From assembly GCA_041641295.1 (NCBI GenBank), contig JBEPYO010000001.1, forward strand, positions 1,088,001 through 1,152,000: a DNA stretch of 64,000 bases, in the 5' to 3' direction. Source of the stretch: Nitrososphaerota archaeon (lineage in GTDB: Archaea; Thermoproteota; Nitrososphaeria_A; Caldarchaeales; Calditenuaceae). Numbering within the stretch: position 1 is the stretch's first letter; every line of letters begins with the position of its first letter. Below, in pieces: positions 5,858 through 25,586 of this stretch. Below the pieces are notes generated by a model. It was given only the letters and a program-made list of their open reading frames with translations, had not been told where the DNA came from and did no database searches. Made by a program: the position numbers and the translations under genes.

Positions 5858-5997
5858 ACAGCAGGGAAAAACCCTAGACGGCCGGTGCCCGAAAAGATAT
5901 AGGTGGTAGAGAAACTCTCTACCGCCCCCTCAATTTATAGCCCGGTCGTCCTTTCCTAGGGGTTCCTAGGTGCTGTCTGGCAGGCCTGCCCCCAGCC
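5838..5997 (+). ncRNA. ~160-nt rod-like hairpin RNA overlapping the 3' end of IS110-like copy 1
   Basis: Nested stems GGCTGGGGGCA/TGCCCCCAGCC, AGACAGCA/TGCTGTCT, CCCTAG/CTAGGG, GACGGCCGG/CCGGTCGTC, GGTGGTAGAG/CTCTACCGCC; homologous to 48358-48516. Confidence 0.7.
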
Positions 5998-6670
5998 AAA
6001 CCCTCCCCTATCTCTCCCTCCCAATTCTTGCCTCACACCAGTATAGGATTCCTTCTCGAGCTTAGCTACTAAGAGAGTATAATCCTACCCACGAGACCCG
6101 GTTAGCTACCCTGCGAGTTTTAGTCTCGCTGAGAAGCCACTGAATTACGCCTAGTCTGTGTCACCTATCAACAACTATTACAGGCTTACCATCACAAATG
6201 TCTAGTACCCTTCTTAAGAATGTTAGGGCAGTGACGATGGGTCTACTCCTGGATGCGTATATGTGTATATAGCTGTTATCTCTCTAAATCCACACCTATT
6301 GCAGACCAACATGTATACTATGCTGCCGTAGACCTTCTCTACAGTCTCGTCTACGACACCCATCCTCCTAGGCCTCCTCTTCGGCCCTGAATAAAATCCT
6401 CAGTCTATGAACCATCTCTAATACTCTCTCTAGCAGCATAATTTCAGAAAATATCTCTCACATATATCCCCAAGGCTAAGATCAGCTATAACAGAACAAC
6501 AGCATACAACCTCTCAGAAGGACTATACCTATTGGTTCAGAACAGTTTGAGAAAGACTATACTACATGGTTCGTTCAAAGATATGCATAACAAAGTGAGA
6601 CAACTACAAGGCCTTGAACTGTCTCTAAAAATCTTAAATAAAAGTTGACAGCACCCTGCAAACCATCCGT

Positions 6671-6707
6671 TAAATATAAATTGAGCGGGCTTCCTTTTTC
6701 AGCCCGC
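6671..6707 (+). promoter_or_regulatory. TATA box and inverted repeat of the aromatic amino acid operon
   Basis: TAAATATAAA at 6671-6680; GCGGGCT-N9-AGCCCGC at 6685-6707 spans the expected transcription start. Confidence 0.6.
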
Positions 6708-6797
6708 ATGAGTAGGGGGAGGGGCGTAGGTCGTAGCTACTTAACACCTCTATGGGGTACTACGACCTATGCCTATTTCTTTGGACCGATTGACTAG
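6708..6797 (+). CDS. Putative aromatic-rich leader peptide MSRGRGVGRSYLTPLWGTTTYAYFFGPID (29 aa)
   Basis: ATG ~28 nt after the TATA box (near-leaderless); 3 Tyr, 1 Trp and 2 Phe codons; double TAG stop; lies inside a structured leader just before the shikimate operon. Confidence 0.65.
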   Translation: MSRGRGVGRSYLTPLWGTTTYAYFFGPID

Positions 6798-6851
6798 TAG
6801 GTCCTCTTCTCCCCCCTCCCCCCTGCTCTGCGGATGTGTGGTGTATGTACC

Positions 6852-7904
6852 ATGTCTAGGTTAGGTGTAGCTATACTCGGAGCGACGGGGATGGTTGGCC
6901 AAATATACGTGCAGATGCTGAGCAAGCATCCATGGTTTGAGATTAGGGCTGTGACGGGGAACTCGACGGTGGGCAAGACGCTCAGAGAGGCTTACCGAGG
7001 CAGGGGCCATGTGCCGGAGAAGTATGCCGACATGGAGGTTCTGCCCTCAGACCCATCTAAGATAGACGCCGACCTGGTCTTCAGCTGTCTTCCAACAAAA
7101 TCTGCCAGAGAGGTTGAGCCCAAGTTCGCAGCTGCCGGCTTCCCGGTTGTAAGCGACTCGTCAGCCCACAGATACCTGCCCGACGTTCCTCTAATCATAC
7201 CGGAGGTAAACCCAGAGCATCTTGACTTGATAGATGCCCAGAAGAGGAGGCGCGGCTGGGACGGCTTCATAGTAACAACTCCCAACTGCACTACCGTCGG
7301 ATTCGCGACCCCCCTCAAACCACTAGCCGATGACTTCGGCCTCAGATACGTCAACGTTGTGACGATGCAGGCGGTCTCGGGGGCGGGCTACAACGGCGTG
7401 CCGTCGATGGCTATCTTGGGAAACATTATCCCCTATATTGAGGGGGAGGAGGCGAAAGTCTCTGAAGAGCCTAGAAAGATTCTGGGCAGGCTGGTTGACG
7501 GTGAGGTTCAGCCCATGGATATTCCAATTGATGCGACCTGTATGAGGGTGCCGACGATTGTAGGCCACCTCGAATCAGTCCAGGTTGAGCTTGGCAGGGA
7601 CGCCTCCGTGGAGGAGGTTGTAGACTCGCTGGCGGGATTTATCGGGCTGCCTCAGAAGCTGGAGCTACCGACCGCGCCTAGACGCCCGATAAATGTTCTC
7701 ACTGATGAGGAGAGGCCTCAGCCTCGGCTGGACGCGGATGCAGGCGAGGTACCGGGGATGGTTATCTCTGTCGGCAGGGTTAGAAAGGGTAGAAAGCCGG
7801 GCACGGTGATGTTCGTCACGTTGAGCCATAACCTTATAAGAGGCGCTGCCGGCGGCGCTATATTGACCGCTGAGCTGCTCTACGCTTTGAGGAGGTTGGA
7901 TTAG
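6852..7904 (+). CDS. asd: Aspartate-semialdehyde dehydrogenase
   Basis: ILGATGMVGQ, PNCTT active-site Cys, QAVSGAG, RVP..GH, HNLIRGAAG; ATG 6852 chosen because it follows a GTGGTG RBS. Confidence 0.95.
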   Translation: MSRLGVAILGATGMVGQIYVQMLSKHPWFEIRAVTGNSTVGKTLREAYRGRGHVPEKYADMEVLPSDPSKIDADLVFSCLPTKSAREVEPKFAAAGFPVVSDSSAHRYLPDVPLIIPEVNPEHLDLIDAQKRRRGWDGFIVTTPNCTTVGFATPLKPLADDFGLRYVNVVTMQAVSGAGYNGVPSMAILGNIIPYIEGEEAKVSEEPRKILGRLVDGEVQPMDIPIDATCMRVPTIVGHLESVQVELGRDASVEEVVDSLAGFIGLPQKLELPTAPRRPINVLTDEERPQPRLDADAGEVPGMVISVGRVRKGRKPGTVMFVTLSHNLIRGAAGGAILTAELLYALRRLD

Positions 7905-8704
7905 TGATGGTGTCGGGTAAGAAGGTCAGGCTTTCGAGACTGACAGAGCGTGGGAGGATGCTCTGCATTCCCATGGACCACGGAATAACCGTCGGGCCAA
8001 TGAAAGGGCTTGACACAATATACAAGACGATCCGCGAGGTGGAGAAGGGTGGGGCTACAGCGTTCCTTGTCCAGAAGGGGATAGTGAAGCACATGCCTGA
8101 GCCTCCGCAGATCGGGTTCATAATCCATGTATCGGGAAGCACCTCGCTGGGCCCAGACCCCAACTGGAAGGTTCGCGTCGGAGGAGTGAAGACCGCACTC
8201 CTGCTGGGTGCCGATGGCCTCTCAGTTCACATAAACATAGGCAGCAAGGCTGAGCCCGAGATGCTGAAGAAGCTCGGAGAGGTGGCGGACGAGTGCGAGT
8301 CTTGGGGTGTCCCGCTGATAGCTATGATGTATCCGAGGGGTGAGGGAATCAAGGATCCGAACGACCCGAACGTGCTGATGCATGTCGCGAGGGTTGGTGC
8401 TGAGCTGGGGGCTGACATAGTTAAGGTGCCCTACAGCGGGAGCGTGGATACGTTTAGACGGGTTGTTGAGGCCTGTCCTGCGCCGGTCGTCATGGCAGGA
8501 GGTCCAAAGATGGATGACGACTTGGCGGTCTTGAGGATGGCTCGCGAGGCTATGGATGCTGGCGCGATGGGGGTAACCATAGGTAGGAACGTCTTCATGC
8601 ATGAGAGACCGGCGGCAATCGTCAGGGCGCTACGCGCAATAGTAATCGAGGACAGGAGCGTAGAGGATGCCCAGAGCCTGCTTGGGCGTGAGCTTAGGGC
8701 TTGA
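7904..8704 (+). CDS. aroA': 2-amino-3,7-dideoxy-D-threo-hept-6-ulosonate synthase (class I aldolase, AroA')
   Basis: [29 protein letters not shown] motifs; adjacent to DHQ synthase II. Confidence 0.85.
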
Positions 8705-9699
8705 ATTCAAGCGGGTCTAAAGAGATAGTCATAGAAGTCTCTGACGAAGAGGAGGCTGAGGAAGCTGTAGCGGCCGGTGCCCCCATACTACTCTATACGG
8801 AGGGCGAGACGCCGGCAAACCTGAAAGTCCGTGCAAAGATATACTCTCTCGGCAGGGAGATTGTTCCAGTCAAGGTATCCAAGCCCAGCGACATTGATGA
8901 GATTGTTAGGCTGGCTCGGACGGGGGTTGGGTCAATACTGGTGGAGACCGCTGACATTAAGATTATTCCGTTGGAGAACATATTGGCCAGTCTTCAAGGG
9001 TCTGGGACGAAGGTTTTCGTGAGGGTTGGGAGTGTCGAAGAGGCTGAAGCCATGCTAGGAGTGCTTGAGAGAGGCGTTGACGGGGTTGTCTACCGGCCAT
9101 CCAGCCCGAGCGAGATTGGTCTTCTCCTCGATATTGTGAGGCAGGTGAGGAGGGTCGAGCTGAGGGCTGCTAGGGTGTCCGACGTCTTCGACGTTGGTAT
9201 GGGTGAGAGGGCGTGCGTTGACACGACATCGATGCTCAGGTATGGTGAGGGGATGCTTGTTGGCAGTATGGCTAGGATGCTCTTCCTCATACACAACGAG
9301 TCAGTGGGCTCAAAGTTCACTCCACCTAGACCCTTCAGGGTAAACGCGGGCGCGGTCCACCTCTACACTCTAGGCCCGACCGGTAAGACACTATACCTCT
9401 CTGAGCTCAAGTCGGGTATGCGGATCCTAATGGTGTCCAAGGATGGGTCTGCGAGAGTTGTCACTGTGGGTAGGGTGAAGATTGAGAGGAGGCCGATGGT
9501 GCAGGTCAACGCTGAGATAGACGGGGTCTTCGGCTCAGTAACGCTTCAGAAGGCTGAGACGATAAGGCTTCTGACAGCTAAGGGCGAGATAGTAGATGTC
9601 ACCTCACTCGCTCGGGGAGAGGAGATATTGGTCTGGCTCTCAAGTAAGGCTGCACGACACATGGGAATGGAGGTAGACGAGTTCATAGATGAGGTCTAG
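8701..9699 (+). CDS. aroB': 3-dehydroquinate synthase II (AroB')
   Basis: IIPLENI, GERACVDT, GEGMLVG, RPFRVNAGAVH, GRVKIERRP, LQKAETIRL, ARHMG. Confidence 0.92.
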   Translation: MNSSGSKEIVIEVSDEEEAEEAVAAGAPILLYTEGETPANLKVRAKIYSLGREIVPVKVSKPSDIDEIVRLARTGVGSILVETADIKIIPLENILASLQGSGTKVFVRVGSVEEAEAMLGVLERGVDGVVYRPSSPSEIGLLLDIVRQVRRVELRAARVSDVFDVGMGERACVDTTSMLRYGEGMLVGSMARMLFLIHNESVGSKFTPPRPFRVNAGAVHLYTLGPTGKTLYLSELKSGMRILMVSKDGSARVVTVGRVKIERRPMVQVNAEIDGVFGSVTLQKAETIRLLTAKGEIVDVTSLARGEEILVWLSSKAARHMGMEVDEFIDEV

Positions 9700-10402
9700 C
9701 CTAGCCGAGAAGGTCTGCGTCTCGATAATGCCCAGGAATATCGGAGAATTCGGACAGCTGTGCGAGAGGGCCTTAGAGCTTGGAGCTAGGCTGGTCGAGC
9801 TACGCCTAGACGGTCTACAGGAGGGTGAGATCGGTGGGGCGGCAAGACTGGTCCAAGACATGAGCATTAAAAAGATCATCACACTTCGGCCAAGCTGGGA
9901 GGGTGGACTCTACGCTGGGGACGAGCAGAAGAGATTGGAGCTTTTGAGACGGGTATCAGTGGATGCAGAGTATGTTGATCTTGAGCGCAGGACTGTAGAT
10001 GCTAATCCTAGGCTTGTGGAGGAGCTGCGAAATGTGGGGGTCAAGGTAATCTCCTCCAAGCACTATTTCGGCGAGGCTCCGTCTAGCCTTGAGCTGCGGA
10101 GGGTTGTTGCGGAGGGGTTGGGGATGGCGGATATAGTCAAGGTGGTTAATAATCCGGGGAAAGTGTCGGAGGCTATGGATATTCTCGCGCTCTACTCTGA
10201 GGCCTCTTTCAGGGGTAGGGTTATCTCGTTCAGTATGGGTGAGAGATGGTGCCTCACGCGGGTGCTCAGCGTCCTGCTTGGGGCGCCCTTCACATACGCA
10301 TCTCTACCCGGCCAGCCCGTGGCTCCAGGCCAGCCCAGCTTCCCCGATACTCTAGAGGCCTTGGAGGTGTTCCTGAAGAGTTGGCCCTCTTGGCAGTTAT
10401 AG
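9689..10402 (+). CDS. aroD: Type I 3-dehydroquinate dehydratase
   Basis: VELRLD, TLRPSWEGG, SKHYF, SMG, APGQ. Confidence 0.9.
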   Translation: MRSSLAEKVCVSIMPRNIGEFGQLCERALELGARLVELRLDGLQEGEIGGAARLVQDMSIKKIITLRPSWEGGLYAGDEQKRLELLRRVSVDAEYVDLERRTVDANPRLVEELRNVGVKVISSKHYFGEAPSSLELRRVVAEGLGMADIVKVVNNPGKVSEAMDILALYSEASFRGRVISFSMGERWCLTRVLSVLLGAPFTYASLPGQPVAPGQPSFPDTLEALEVFLKSWPSWQL

Positions 10403-11220
10403 GCTACCCGATATCTCACTCGGCCTCGCCGGTCATGCATAATGCAGCCCTCCGAGCCCTTAACATGCCTAACCGCTACATCGCAATAGAAGCCCGCCCA
10501 GAGAAGCTGCACGAGACCTTGAAGACACTCCACAGACTCGGCTTCAAAGGACTTAACATAACCATCCCACACAAAGAAGCAGCGGCCCAGGTCGCTGTCG
10601 TGCTCTCGGAGGAGGCCGAGACGATAGGCGCCGTAAACACGCTCAAGAGAGTGGAGGATGGCTGGACCGGATACAATACCGACGTCGAAGGCGTCGTGAG
10701 GTGCCTATCCACCCATGTTGAGGGACGTCCCGACCATGTGCTGGTCCTAGGAGCCGGTGGTGCGGCGGCAGCCGCCCTCTATGCCCTGTGGAGAATGGGT
10801 GCTGAGAGGGTGGTTATAGCCAACAGGAGCCGGGGGCGGGCCGAGGTGTTGGCCGGGCGATTCAGGAATAGGTTGGGGCTTAACATCAAAGTAATAGCGC
10901 TAGAGGGTGCCGGACGCGAGGCACGCAGCGCAGAGGTCATAATAAACGCGACACCCCTCGGCCTCACCTACCACGAAAGCCCTATAAGTCCAGGCGACAT
11001 AACCGGGCGCCACATAGTCCTCGACATGGTTTACTCTCCTGTGCCGACGCCACTCCAGAGGGCTGCCGCCAGAGCAGGCGCCCAGTATATTGACGGTGTG
11101 AAGATGCTTGTTGAGCAGGGGGCCAGGGCGTTCGAGATTTTCCACGGTGTCGAGCCTGACAGGTCTTTGATGGAGAGGGCTGTGAGAGCTTGGCTTGAGC
11201 GGCGCGGTGGGCCGGGATGA
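10381..11220 (+). CDS. aroE: Shikimate dehydrogenase
   Basis: GYPISHSASP, NITIPHK, GAVNT, NTD, GAGGAA, NATPLG, DMVY; TTG start at 10381 preferred over the track start at 10246. Confidence 0.92.
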   Translation: MALLAVIGYPISHSASPVMHNAALRALNMPNRYIAIEARPEKLHETLKTLHRLGFKGLNITIPHKEAAAQVAVVLSEEAETIGAVNTLKRVEDGWTGYNTDVEGVVRCLSTHVEGRPDHVLVLGAGGAAAAALYALWRMGAERVVIANRSRGRAEVLAGRFRNRLGLNIKVIALEGAGREARSAEVIINATPLGLTYHESPISPGDITGRHIVLDMVYSPVPTPLQRAAARAGAQYIDGVKMLVEQGARAFEIFHGVEPDRSLMERAVRAWLERRGGPG

Positions 11221-12488
11221 TCGTGAGTGTCAGGGCTGAGAGGGTTTCCGGAGAGGTTAGGGCGCCGCCAAGCAAAAGCTACACTCACAGGGCAATCGCG
11301 GCGGCACTCCTAGCACCCGGAAAATCTCGCATATTCAACCCGCTATACTCTCGCGACACAGAAGCGACAATCAACGCCGCAAGACTCTTCGGCGCGATAC
11401 TCCAGCCCCAAAGGGATGGGATCGAGATAGAGGGTGTGGAGCGTCCCAAGACACCCGAGAACGTCATAGACGCGATGAACTCCGGCACTACGCTCAGAAT
11501 AATGACATGCATCGCAGGCCTTACCGAGAGGGGATACACCGTCCTGACCGGTGATGAGAGCCTCCGTAAAAGGCCGATGCAGCCTCTCCTAGACGCCCTC
11601 GGCCAACTGGGCATCAGGTCGTGGTCAGCGAAGCTCGACGGCACAGCACCAATAATCGTTGAGGGCGGAGAGATGGGGGGAGAGTGCAGTATCCGGGGGG
11701 ATATTAGCAGCCAGTTCGTCTCAGGCCTCCTCATAGCAGGACCAGCAGCCGAGAGGCCTATAGCCATCAACATTCAGGGAGACCTAGTCTCAAAACCCTA
11801 CGTCGACTCCACGATAGCGGTCCTCAGACTCTATGGCGCCAAGGTTGAGAGGGAGGGATACAGCCACTTCTACACAGAGCCCGGCGGCTACAGGCCAGCA
11901 GCCTTCACTGTTCCAGGCGACTATGGCCTGGCCGGCTTCATCTTGGCCGCTCCGCTGATGGTGGGTGGGCGGGTCAGGGTGGCTGGTCTTGACCCTGGTC
12001 TTCCGCAGGCCGACTACAGGCTGGTCGAGGTGCTGCGGGCTATGGGTGCAGATGTAAGGGAGGGGGATGGATTCGTCGAGGTGGGTGAGGCGTCTCTAAA
12101 GGGTGTAGACGTAGACCTGAAGGACTCCCCAGACCTCCTACCCATAGTCGCGGCCTTGGCGGCAGTTGCAGAAGGCGAGACAAGAATCCACGGCGTAAAG
12201 CATGCGAGGTTCAAGGAAAGCGATAGAATCCACGTAATAGCCACCGAGCTAGCCAAGACATCAATCCGCGTGGAAGAGGCACCAGACGGGATGGTCATAA
12301 GGGGTGGCAGGCTGAGAGGTGCCCGGCTGGACCCGCGCGGAGACCACAGACTCTTCATGGCATTCACCCTACTCTCACTGGCCACGCAGGGGCTCATCGA
12401 AGTCTTAGACCCAGAGTCAGCAGCAGTCTCCTACCCCAACTTCCTAGACGACCTCAAACTACTAGGGTGCGAGGTTGAGAAGTCATGA
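11217..12488 (+). CDS. aroA: 3-phosphoshikimate 1-carboxyvinyltransferase (EPSP synthase)
   Basis: PPSKSYTHR, NSGTTLR, RPM, SSQFVS, KESDRI, DHR. Confidence 0.95.
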   Translation: MIVSVRAERVSGEVRAPPSKSYTHRAIAAALLAPGKSRIFNPLYSRDTEATINAARLFGAILQPQRDGIEIEGVERPKTPENVIDAMNSGTTLRIMTCIAGLTERGYTVLTGDESLRKRPMQPLLDALGQLGIRSWSAKLDGTAPIIVEGGEMGGECSIRGDISSQFVSGLLIAGPAAERPIAINIQGDLVSKPYVDSTIAVLRLYGAKVEREGYSHFYTEPGGYRPAAFTVPGDYGLAGFILAAPLMVGGRVRVAGLDPGLPQADYRLVEVLRAMGADVREGDGFVEVGEASLKGVDVDLKDSPDLLPIVAALAAVAEGETRIHGVKHARFKESDRIHVIATELAKTSIRVEEAPDGMVIRGGRLRGARLDPRGDHRLFMAFTLLSLATQGLIEVLDPESAAVSYPNFLDDLKLLGCEVEKS

Positions 12489-13591
12489 GTGGAAACATTC
12501 TGGGTAAGAGGTTCGTGGTCGTGAGCTTCGGCGAAAGCCACGGCCGATGCGTCGGAGCGGTAGTGGACGGCTGCCCAGCGGGCCTAAGGCTCTCCGAACA
12601 GGACATACAGACCCTCTTAGACCTGAGGAGGCCTGGACAATCAATCGTCACCACGCAGAGAAGGGAGGAGGACAAGGTGGAGATTTTGAGCGGAGTCTTT
12701 AACGGCTACACCACCGGCGCACCTATCGCCATGCTAGTCTGGAACAAGGATGTGGTCTCCAGAGACTACGACAAGGTGTTGGAGACGCCGAGGCCGGGTC
12801 ACGCAGACTACTTTGCGAGGCTGAAGTACGGGGGCTTCAACGACCACCGGGGCGGCGGAAGGTTCTCGGGGAGGATAACTGCGGGCTTTGTTATGGCTGG
12901 AGCCATAGCCCTGAAGCTGCTGAAGCAGGCACTAGGGGTCGAAGTACTTGCTTACACTAAGCGTATAGCGGGCATCGAGGCTAAGCCCCTCCCCATAGAG
13001 ACTATCAGGGAGAAGAGGTGGCTTAACGAGGTAAGATGCCCAGACGAAAAGGCCGCAGAGGCCATGAAACGCGCAATCCTCGAGGCCAGGTCCTCAGGAG
13101 ACTCTGTGGGCGGAGTCATAGAGTGCGTAGCCCTAAACGTCCCGCCATGCCTCGGCGAGCCCGTCTTCGACTCACTGGACGCAGACCTCTCAAAGGCGCT
13201 GTTCAGCATACCCGCAGTGAAGGGTGTAGAGTTCGGAGCAGGGTTCAGGGCGGCGGATATGAAGGGGTCGGAGCACAACGACCCACTCGGAGTAATAGGC
13301 GGAGAGGTCAGGCCCTTGACCAACAACGCGGGCGGGATAGTCGGCGGCCTCTCAACAGGCAGGGAGATAGTCGTCAGAGTAGCGTTCAAGCCGGCAGCCT
13401 CTATATCTAAGCCCCAACACACACTCAACGTTAAGAAGAGGGAGGTGGAGGAGGTGGTCGTGACCGGGAGACACGATCCATGCGTCGTGCCGAGGGCAGT
13501 CCCAATCGTGGAATCGGTCGTCGGCATCGTCCTAGCTGACCACGCCCTCCGTGCAGGCCTCATACCACCAGTACTAAGAGGTGTAGAGTAG
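12485..13591 (+). CDS. aroC: Chorismate synthase
   Basis: FGESHG, RPGHAD, GGGRFSGR, SIPAVKG, NNAGGIVGG, GRHDPC. Confidence 0.96.
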   Translation: MSGNILGKRFVVVSFGESHGRCVGAVVDGCPAGLRLSEQDIQTLLDLRRPGQSIVTTQRREEDKVEILSGVFNGYTTGAPIAMLVWNKDVVSRDYDKVLETPRPGHADYFARLKYGGFNDHRGGGRFSGRITAGFVMAGAIALKLLKQALGVEVLAYTKRIAGIEAKPLPIETIREKRWLNEVRCPDEKAAEAMKRAILEARSSGDSVGGVIECVALNVPPCLGEPVFDSLDADLSKALFSIPAVKGVEFGAGFRAADMKGSEHNDPLGVIGGEVRPLTNNAGGIVGGLSTGREIVVRVAFKPAASISKPQHTLNVKKREVEEVVVTGRHDPCVVPRAVPIVESVVGIVLADHALRAGLIPPVLRGVE

Positions 13592-14986
13592 TTGGGTAGG
13601 GATGAGATCGAGCGCTTGAGAGAGGAGATAAGGGCGGTGACAGAGGAGATTATTCGAGCCATAGCCAAGAGGAGGCAGCTGGCGGAAAGGCTAGGCGAGA
13701 TAAAGAGAGAGCTGGGATTAGAGCCCGTCGACCTTGACGCGGAGTCGGAACTCAGAGCACAGGTAGCCAAGGCTGCAAAAGAGAGTGGCTTAGACTTGGA
13801 GACCGCCCAGAGGATGCTCAGCCTCCTCATACAAGACGCGATACTCGTCCAGCAGCCACAGAGCAAGCCCAAGATCACCCACATGGACGTCTTCAGGAGG
13901 GCCAAGCAGCTGGAAATGAGCGGCGAGAAAGTATACCACCTCGAAGTCGGTGAGCCGGACCTCGGGGCTCCAAGCCGTGTCGCGGAAGCCCTAAGCTGGG
14001 CGGCCATGAACGGCTTCGCAGCCTATGGTGAGGCTAAGGGTAGGCCGGAGCTGCGGAGGGCGATTAAAGACCTTCTCCGCGAGAGGCTTGGCGTAGACGT
14101 TTCGGAGGACCAGATAGTGGTCACGCCGGGAGGGAGATTCGCGGTATACTTGGCTGCCGCCTCCACGCTGAGGCCAGGCGACCAGGCTGTAATCATAGAC
14201 CCCTCATGGCCCCTTTACAAGCAAGTCGTCGAGATGATGCACTCTAGGAGCCTAGCAATACACACCACGCTGGAGGATGGCTGGCGCCCCAGGCAGGATG
14301 TGCTGGAGAAAATCCTTAGACAGAGGCCGCGGACGGTATTCCTAAACTACCCGAATAATCCCACAGGTGTAACGCTCAGACGCAACGAGTTAGAGGAGCT
14401 TGTCGACGAGGTAAGACGCGCAGGCGCATACCTAGTCAGCGACGAGGTCTACATGGACTACTGCTTCACAGACTTCACTTCAGCCCTCCAGACAGGGTAC
14501 GAGAAGACCATAATGATAAACTCGTTCTCGAAGAGCTGGGGGATGACAGGCTACAGGATAGGATACCTCGTGGCGAGCAGGGAGATAGCGGATAGGGCTG
14601 CCAGAATACTGTCCCAGCTAATAACCTGCGTCCCCGAGTTCATACAGATGGCCTCGATAAAGGCTATCGAGGATAGGGAGACACCTAGGAGATATGGCGA
14701 GATAATGAAGCGGCGGATAGAAATGGTGTGCAAGGAACTCGACAGAATCGGCGCAACATACGTAAAGCCTAACGGAGGCATGTACGTCTTCCCCAAGATC
14801 GGGGACGAAGGCTTCGACTCGGCAGAGTTCGCCCTAAACCTCCTAGAGACTGCCAAGGTCGCAGTTGCCCCAGGCACAGCATTCGGCGACTATCCAGAAT
14901 ACATCAGAATATCTGTGGGGCTAGGCGACGAAGACCTTAGGAAAGGATTACAAGTGCTAGCTGAAAACCTCCAGAAAACCCGATAA
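13592..14986 (+). CDS. Chorismate mutase (AroQ)-class I/II aminotransferase fusion
   Basis: N-terminal IERLREEI...RRQLAERLGEIKRELG AroQ helices; C-terminal GEPD, NYPNNPTG, DEVY, SFSKSWGMTGYRIG PLP site. Confidence 0.85.
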   Translation: MGRDEIERLREEIRAVTEEIIRAIAKRRQLAERLGEIKRELGLEPVDLDAESELRAQVAKAAKESGLDLETAQRMLSLLIQDAILVQQPQSKPKITHMDVFRRAKQLEMSGEKVYHLEVGEPDLGAPSRVAEALSWAAMNGFAAYGEAKGRPELRRAIKDLLRERLGVDVSEDQIVVTPGGRFAVYLAAASTLRPGDQAVIIDPSWPLYKQVVEMMHSRSLAIHTTLEDGWRPRQDVLEKILRQRPRTVFLNYPNNPTGVTLRRNELEELVDEVRRAGAYLVSDEVYMDYCFTDFTSALQTGYEKTIMINSFSKSWGMTGYRIGYLVASREIADRAARILSQLITCVPEFIQMASIKAIEDRETPRRYGEIMKRRIEMVCKELDRIGATYVKPNGGMYVFPKIGDEGFDSAEFALNLLETAKVAVAPGTAFGDYPEYIRISVGLGDEDLRKGLQVLAENLQKTR

Positions 14987-25490: not shown

Positions 25491-25493
25491 CAG

Positions 25494-25586
25494 TGGGCCC
25501 GGAGGGATTCGAACCCTCGACCTTCCGGTCTCTCCCGCCATACCTGTTATCAGCCGGACGCTCCAGCCAGGCTGAGCTACGGGCCC
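25494..25586 (-). tRNA. tRNA-Ile(GAT) with an 18-nt intron at 37/38 (25530-25547)
   Basis: Cloverleaf: GGGCCCG/CGGGCCC-A, GCTC/GAGC, TCCGG/CCGGA, GAGGG-TTCGAAT-CCCTC; CCA not encoded. Confidence 0.92.

Follow-up and report, generated by a model that had tools for sequence, protein, structure and literature searches.

The shikimate operon in the 64,000-nt stretch of DNA analyzed here (the window) is preceded by a compact leader of ~125 nt that probably acts in cis as a sensor of tyrosine and phenylalanine supply, read by the ribosome through a short upstream open reading frame (uORF). Both the codons and the fold of this leader appear to be under selection, as in a leader-peptide sensor, because the codons at an RNA junction encode Tyr or Phe only and the surrounding helices covary across relatives. 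The step of sensing agrees with a leader peptide, as every unpaired nucleotide that is conserved in the leader belongs to a codon for a pathway product. Although the leader resembles a classical attenuator at this step, we do not file it as one, because it has neither a terminator nor alternative helices; where the word "attenuator" is applied to it, the word expresses what we infer about function.

Leader anatomy and the downstream operon

The elements that a preliminary description had assigned to the leader are present in the sequence (Table 1). The TATA box claimed at 6671-6680 corresponds to a TATA-like box at ~6671-6681, and the near-leaderless uORF contains Tyr, Trp and Phe together with the YAYFF cluster ascribed to it. 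The extensive fold that had been proposed consists of three helices, P1, P2 and P3, all of which occur in the minimum-free-energy fold of 6681-6860; P1 is the claimed pairing between a 5′ purine tract and a pyrimidine tract, and P3 is the hairpin said to enclose the stop codon, which lies in its loop.

Table 1. Coordinates of the leader features and of the operon, numbered from the first letter of the window.
Feature	Position	Strand	Basis or remark
TATA-like promoter box	6671-6681	+	Sequence; box common to 8/8 same-genus leaders
uORF, 29 codons plus stop, near-leaderless	6708-6797	+	Stop codon 6795-6797; uORF of 21-29 codons in 23/23 distinct leaders
P1, 5′ strand (purine tract), uORF codons 2-5	6710-6722	+	Pairs with ~6813-6828
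P2 hairpin, 14-bp stem, variable 23-nt loop	6723-6773	+	6723-6736 pairs with 6760-6773
Aromatic codon block Tyr-Ala-Tyr-Phe-Phe, residues 21-25	6768-6782	+	Tyr/Phe in 54/54 junction-codon cells
P3 hairpin, uORF stop (6795-6797) in loop	6783-6804	+	6783-6787 pairs with 6800-6804
Polypyrimidine tract	6805-6828	+	3′ part (~6813-6828) is the 3′ strand of P1
asd ribosome-binding site and start codon	6840-6854	+	GGTG 6840-6843; ATG 6852-6854, conserved
Operon, eight genes from asd on	6852-14986	+	Pfam matches, ORF coordinates

The usual archaeal spacing between TATA box and transcription start is ~26 nt. From this spacing, transcription is predicted to start at ~6701-6706, and in three genera the predicted start falls 0-7 nt 5′ of helix P1. 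The three-helix fold reaches from the predicted mRNA 5′ end to ~20 nt before asd. Helix P1 is extended by pairing of 6703-6707 with 6829-6833, the 3′ strand of P2 encodes Thr-Thr-Thr-Tyr-Ala, and the last three aromatic codons (6774-6782) form an unpaired junction between P2 and P3. An extra hairpin at 6684-6707, between the TATA box and the uORF ATG, is not conserved and is probably promoter spacer DNA. In addition to the aromatic block, the uORF has Tyr and Trp codons at residues 11 and 16; given the composition of its own genome (aromatic fraction 0.087), four or more aromatics in a given five-residue window have a probability of 2.6e-4. A longer asd ORF, beginning at ATG 6834, was rejected as the start, that ATG being absent in two congeners.

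According to Pfam, the operon encodes, in order, aspartate-semialdehyde dehydrogenase (asd), a DeoC-family aldolase of the aroA′ type, 3-dehydroquinate synthase II, dehydroquinase, shikimate dehydrogenase, EPSP synthase, chorismate synthase and a chorismate mutase-aminotransferase fusion. The aldolase and the type II dehydroquinate synthase together make up what we take to be the archaeal aspartate-semialdehyde/DKFP entry into the shikimate pathway, which would explain the presence of asd as the first gene. In the last gene (13592-14986), a chorismate mutase type II domain is fused to a class I/II aminotransferase (Pfam), and the first and last steps of the Phe/Tyr branch are thus combined in one protein. 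An operon that carries chorismate synthesis along with both ends of the Phe/Tyr branch fits Tyr and Phe as the signal. Within the operon, the ORFs given for shikimate dehydrogenase (10246-11220) and dehydroquinase (9689-10402) share ~157 nt; the true start of the former is probably later than listed, because its Pfam match begins only at residue 51.

On its upstream side, the TATA box adjoins ~0.75 kb without ORFs (5924-6690). Two nested inverted repeats (5924-5939/6675-6690 and 5960-5977/6647-6664) bound this segment, the outer one being an inverted copy of the TATA box and the start of the spacer. The segment is single copy in the genome, and because the sequence of the congeners differs up to the TATA box, it looks like an insertion that has replaced the BRE-side flank of the promoter. 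Inside it, ~28 nt at ~6624-6651 have many matches of 86-96% identity in other genera of the order, several of them located ~95-123 nt from contig ends, as would be expected for a dispersed repeat, e.g., a mobile-element end or a CRISPR-like repeat.

Conservation of the fold and of the reading frame

A DNA search of 40 relatives returned the leader at 78-94% identity in all seven other genomes of the genus (g1), along with weak partial matches in a second genus. The operon aldolase is present in 70 of the 76 genomes of the order, and the gene immediately upstream of it is asd at 25 of the 30 loci returned. Wherever the region is present in family f1, at 18 loci in all (8 in g1, 6 in g2, 1 in g3 and 3 in g4), a structured leader with a uORF precedes asd. 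The check suggested in the preliminary description, namely whether orthologous leaders keep uORFs with aromatic codons, therefore came out in its favor at 18/18 syntenic loci from four genera. At the other seven asd-aldolase loci (six in g6, one in g9), sequence that appears coding by eye runs up to the asd ribosome-binding site, and inspection by eye found no leader-like intergenic stretch before asd; of five further loci, from other families, three (genus g7) have a plain short promoter region, and at the others the sequence up to the ribosome-binding site again looks coding by eye.

A covariance model built from 11 leaders found one site per genome, always before asd, in 17 of the 76 genomes (the leader's own genome and 16 of 18 in f1), and had no match in the 57 genomes of families f2, f3 and f4; extra matches were the antisense strand of the same site. 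The first of the two misses in f1 is a genome that is 73% complete and whose aldolase match is only at paralog level (1.1e-40), and the second is a divergent g3 leader that scored 16.1 bits. Pattern scans widened the set: 16 of the 21 matches in public genomes are archaeal leaders (Calditenuaceae, Calditenuis, Caldarchaeales) and 5 are unrelated bacterial sequences, and the 35 matches in metagenomes comprise 21 leaders (one truncated) and 14 unrelated sequences. In total, 23 distinct leader sequences were obtained. As the genomes are kin, these counts overstate independence, and the four genera represent perhaps 8-10 independent lineages. A repeat or mobile element was considered for the leader and rejected, the leader being single copy in its own 1.56-Mb genome and the covariance model finding one site per genome.

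The minimum-free-energy fold, a three-way junction of P1, P2 and P3, has an energy of -80.4 kcal/mol (z = -4.5), and none of 200 shuffles was equally stable. Covariation was assessed in a model-based alignment of 19 leaders, from which three g2 leaders with another P2 register and the g3 leader were left out. In this alignment, which is fitted to a hand-given structure and leans towards it, 92.6% of 517 cells are standard pairs, compared with 43-50% when the partners are slid by 1-3 columns; changes on both sides occur in 13 of 28 pairs, a number reached by 0/500 shuffles, and the covariation score is 0.308 versus 0.165 ± 0.014. By helix, the share of paired cells and the pairs with both-side changes are 99.5% and 3/10 for P1, 91.5% and 6/13 for P2, and 80% and 4/5 for P3. 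Independent duplex folding gave P1 and P2 in 23/23 leaders, and single-sequence folds gave P1 in 18/18 and the complete junction in at least 14 of the 18. RNAalifold, applied to a plain MAFFT alignment of 18 leaders, recovered P2 alone, because the 3′ strands of P1 are out of register in that alignment.

Individual changes between lineages illustrate how the helices are kept. In a metagenome variant with two changes in the 5′ strand of P1, one G-C pair has become A-U and one U-G wobble has become C-G; in g2, P1 has two extra pairs. Depending on the lineage, Ala, Pro or Thr is encoded between the two Tyr codons, and the first base of that codon covaries with its partner in the 5′ strand of P2. 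Judged by eye, a small hairpin holds the stop codon in its loop in g1, g2 and g4 leaders. Folds modeled at 65, 75 and 85°C keep the junction and lose small local hairpins near the asd start. The loops vary freely, and conserved unpaired nucleotides are confined to the codons of the P2-P3 junction. Rfam covers bacterial leader families; a scan of the window at gathering thresholds gave no family match except a tRNA elsewhere, a permissive E-value scan of 6400-7000 gave a single chance-level microRNA match (E = 8.5), and ARAGORN found no tRNA in the leader.

The reading frame is kept along with the fold. In 23/23 distinct leaders the aromatic block is enclosed by an in-frame start, ATG or GTG, and an in-frame stop that together delimit 21-29 codons, and stops occur in frame +1 in 22/23 leaders and in frame +2 in 16/23. 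The position of the start differs by genus: in g1 it is an ATG at the 5′ end, and in g2, g3 and g4 it is an ATG or GTG inside the 5′ strand of P2, a few to ~9 nt after a G-rich tract that is the 5′ strand of P1 (by eye). This purine tract is the Shine-Dalgarno-like sequence of the uORF in g2 and g4. The purine tract, the 5′ strand of P2 and the aromatic block share one frame in g1, g2 and g4, and the length differences between genera are multiples of three, which keeps the frame.

At the level of codons, all 54 cells that the three junction codons make up in the 18 leaders derived from synteny encode Tyr or Phe. All four Tyr/Phe codons are used, with T or C at the third base, A or T at the second and an invariant first base, and the Tyr two codons upstream of the junction codons is kept in 17 of the 18. 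Five metagenome variants were found by a pattern that requires Tyr/Phe codons and are not counted in this test. One congener has Tyr-Phe swapped to Phe-Tyr; another has a one-base insertion just past the block that changes the C-terminus and moves the stop, with the block intact. Residues 11-17 of the uORF diverge widely within g1. Overall, aromatics make up 115 of the 465 residues in the 18 uORFs (24.7% by hand count) versus 8.7% genome-wide. Tyr and Phe codons are inherently U-rich, so that part of this codon signal could instead stem from selection for a U-rich strand at the RNA level.

Possible ribosome-dependent output and competing explanations

Stalling of a ribosome at the aromatic codons had been proposed, in the preliminary description, to expose or hide either the pyrimidine tract, in a terminator-like role, or the asd start. 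Constrained folds were computed for five leaders from three genera, with a ribosome footprint covering the first aromatic codon, the last one or the stop codon, and they support neither proposal. In 5/5 leaders with a ribosome on the aromatic or stop codons, P1 stayed intact, the pyrimidine tract stayed paired and no alternative helix appeared, and a stalled ribosome made no difference to the unpaired probability of the asd ribosome-binding site. Among the placements modeled, P1 opened only with the ribosome at the uORF start. When the uORF start was masked, the freed pyrimidine tract paired weakly with the asd site in 2/5 leaders at 37°C; such a sequestration of the asd site is implausible at growth temperature, the pairing being too weak for 65-85°C in the model, and the local pairing of the asd ribosome-binding site itself melts by 65-75°C (model). 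The terminator-like role of the pyrimidine tract likewise found no support, since no terminator-like hairpin followed by a T-run occurs on the + strand of the window leader or of a g4 leader, and T-runs in the g1 and g2 leaders do not exceed 3-4 nt. An extra segment of ~35 nt, absent from the other genera, lies between P1 and asd in the g4 leaders (loci L030, L031 and L033), with T4-T5 runs that follow a small hairpin in one case; this segment could be a lineage-specific terminator-like addition.

The earlier proposal of an archaeal attenuator can thus be kept in part: a putative sensor of the aromatic leader-peptide type is in place at 18/18 loci, whereas the terminator hairpin with T-run, or an alternative helix, is absent. 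In terms of known classes of regulatory leader, it has the short co-directional leader ORF with a usable start and the conserved cluster of end-product codons that are expected of an attenuator, but neither an intrinsic terminator, be it a hairpin with T-run or the oligo-T run of archaea, nor mutually exclusive terminator and antiterminator helices. The unchanged predicted accessibility of the asd site sets it apart from translational attenuation of the erm/cat or mycobacterial Cys type. Of the features of a riboswitch, it has a conserved covarying fold, and it matches no described aptamer family.

That the constrained folds produced no ribosome-dependent alternative structure would also be expected if the leader were a structured cis-regulatory RNA that binds a metabolite (as a riboswitch for Phe, Tyr or an intermediate) or a protein at the junction, with the ORF as a by-product. 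Such an RNA would account for a fold that is conserved, covarying and heat-stable and for conserved unpaired nucleotides in one junction only, and riboswitches have precedent in archaea, whereas full-text literature searches returned no archaeal leader peptides. However, the junction varies with a period of three and solely by changes that keep Tyr or Phe, and an in-frame start and stop are kept in 23/23 leaders despite the moved start positions. The free loops and the few conserved unpaired bases are also unlike typical aptamers, and no Rfam family matches. Considering these points, we regard a metabolite- or protein-binding leader as unlikely.

A constitutive stabilizer, in which the junction would pair the 5′ end against 5′-3′ decay of a long mRNA when hot and would sense nothing, is more improbable still. 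Such a role would be in keeping with the pairing of the predicted 5′ terminus by P1, with the stability of the modeled fold up to 85°C and with the presence in the genome of a 420-aa beta-CASP gene, the size of the archaeal 5′-3′ exonuclease; it leaves unexplained, however, both the kept frame with its Tyr/Phe codons and the restriction of the leader to one operon in every genome searched. Finally, it is highly improbable that the uORF product is a small functional protein, e.g., an aromatic-rich membrane or enzyme-associated peptide, as the frame in 23/23 leaders and the aromatic, hydrophobic C-terminal half might suggest, given that the peptide is not conserved outside the aromatic block, that residues 11-17 are free in g1, that the N-terminus shifts with the start position and that the C-terminus is frameshifted in one congener.

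A sensor of Tyr/Phe supply that is read by the ribosome could work as follows. Transcription and translation are coupled in archaea. The mRNA would start a few nt before 6708, and a ribosome would initiate on the uORF before transcription of the leader is complete, in leaderless fashion in g1 and via the Shine-Dalgarno-like purine tract in g2 and g4. Once the pyrimidine tract has been made, P1 would pair the 5′ end with it and close the uORF start, and sensing would therefore be largely confined to the first ribosomes. A shortage of charged tRNA-Tyr or tRNA-Phe would make these ribosomes stall at the Tyr/Phe codons of the P2-P3 junction; otherwise they would run on to the stop codon, in the loop of P3. 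With a stable P1 over its start, the uORF would be open to translation mainly until the pyrimidine tract has been transcribed, which points to a co-transcriptional decision. The same property is a point against the sensor: judging from the modeled folds, P1 should close the uORF after folding, and regulation would then need a co-transcriptional step. We infer that the uORF is translated and that stalling alters the expression of the operon.

How stalling would be converted into an output is a matter for more tentative suggestion. A ribosome-free folded leader would show its U-rich junction and C/U-rich single strands to the beta-CASP cleavage and termination machinery, i.e., FttA/aCPSF1 and the 5′-3′ exonuclease. 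With a stalled ribosome over this junction and its neighboring strands, the transcript would be spared during starvation. Masking of U/C-rich single strands from FttA/aCPSF1-type machinery by the stalled ribosome is our preferred guess at the output, offered as a possibility with limited confidence. We favor it because FttA is reported to bind and cleave U-rich nascent RNA at a distance of 30-36 nt behind the polymerase (PMC11616081), and because two beta-CASP genes, with open frames of 643 and 420 aa, are present in the genome. Taken together, the heat-stable three-way junction would close the uORF after the first ribosomes and show the Tyr/Phe tract single-stranded. It is a rather doubtful, though conceivable, extension of this scheme that the leader represents the first archaeal ribosome-mediated amino acid sensor with a non-hairpin output, in which one junction serves both as sensor codons and as the entry site of the factor.

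Caldarchaeales (Aigarchaeota) are uncultured hot-spring archaea, and if the sensor is real, the leader explains how their DKFP-type shikimate operon is controlled. The leader is compact, and clear predictions can be made for mutations of its start codon, Tyr/Phe codons and P1. Moved into tractable thermophiles or in vitro systems, it could also be used to ask whether archaeal ribosomes report amino acid supply and via which output.

Known leader peptides and other operons of the genome

To our knowledge, amino acid sensing that is read by the ribosome has so far been established only in bacteria. The leader is like the bacterial trp, phe, his and leu attenuators in having a run of end-product codons in a short leader ORF, a conserved RNA structure and an adjoining biosynthetic operon, and like them it conserves the regulatory codons and not the remainder of the peptide. 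It differs from them in its archaeal host, in having neither a terminator hairpin with U-run nor an antiterminator alternative, in a uORF start that is locked by a long-range helix at the 5′ end and is leaderless in g1, and in giving no match in the Rfam scan.

The tna operon is controlled by a ribosome at the end of the leader ORF that blocks the access of a termination factor. Here, similarly, a G-poor, pyrimidine-rich tract lies just past the leader stop, and ribosome occupancy could gate the access of a factor, although the signal would be starvation rather than an inducer. Archaea, as far as we know, have no Rho. A further difference from tna-type control is that FttA is reported to prefer U-rich over C-rich RNA (PMC11616081).

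Two sets of leaderless bacterial ORFs come close in other respects. In mycobacteria, ribosome stalling on leaderless polycysteine short ORFs is reported to exert control without a classical terminator (bioRxiv 10.1101/834739). There too, a short ORF that begins leaderless carries a run of codons for the amino acid made by the operon that follows; the difference is that here the asd ribosome-binding site lies outside the fold and is unchanged in predicted accessibility. In Deinococcus deserti, leaderless leader peptides have been predicted to precede amino acid or tRNA synthetase genes (PMC4007540). They resemble the present leader in a transcription start at or beside the start codon of a residue-rich short peptide. 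They differ in being bacterial predictions that assume terminator-based attenuation and in their presence before several operons of one genome, as opposed to one operon here. A full-text literature search returned no archaeal leader-peptide attenuator, and in a term search of a review of archaeal coupling (PMC8116511), the words attenuation and leader peptide did not occur.

The remainder of the genome was also scanned for uORFs with residue runs. Among the 12 top-scoring matches (at least five of one kind in six residues), 9 were checked downstream with Pfam and none of these stands before an amino acid operon, one class-V aminotransferase downstream being a possible exception. No conserved uORF precedes trpE, the prephenate dehydratase gene or a weak prephenate dehydrogenase match. 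The Trp-rich frame that precedes trpE was considered and rejected: it lacks a start codon, relatives do not share it, and the conserved TATA box is downstream of it.

In trpE itself (G000:C1 ~440440-440860, locus L120, minus strand), the conserved N-terminal frame lacks any ATG, GTG or TTG between the preceding stop and a point well past a conserved motif, and a conserved TATA box and a purine-rich tract lie upstream; as read from the sequence, the start of trpE may be non-canonical or coupled to a tiny upstream frame. Elsewhere in the window, a tRNA-Ile (anticodon GAT) on the minus strand at 25493-25586 spans 93-94 nt, which is long enough for an intron.
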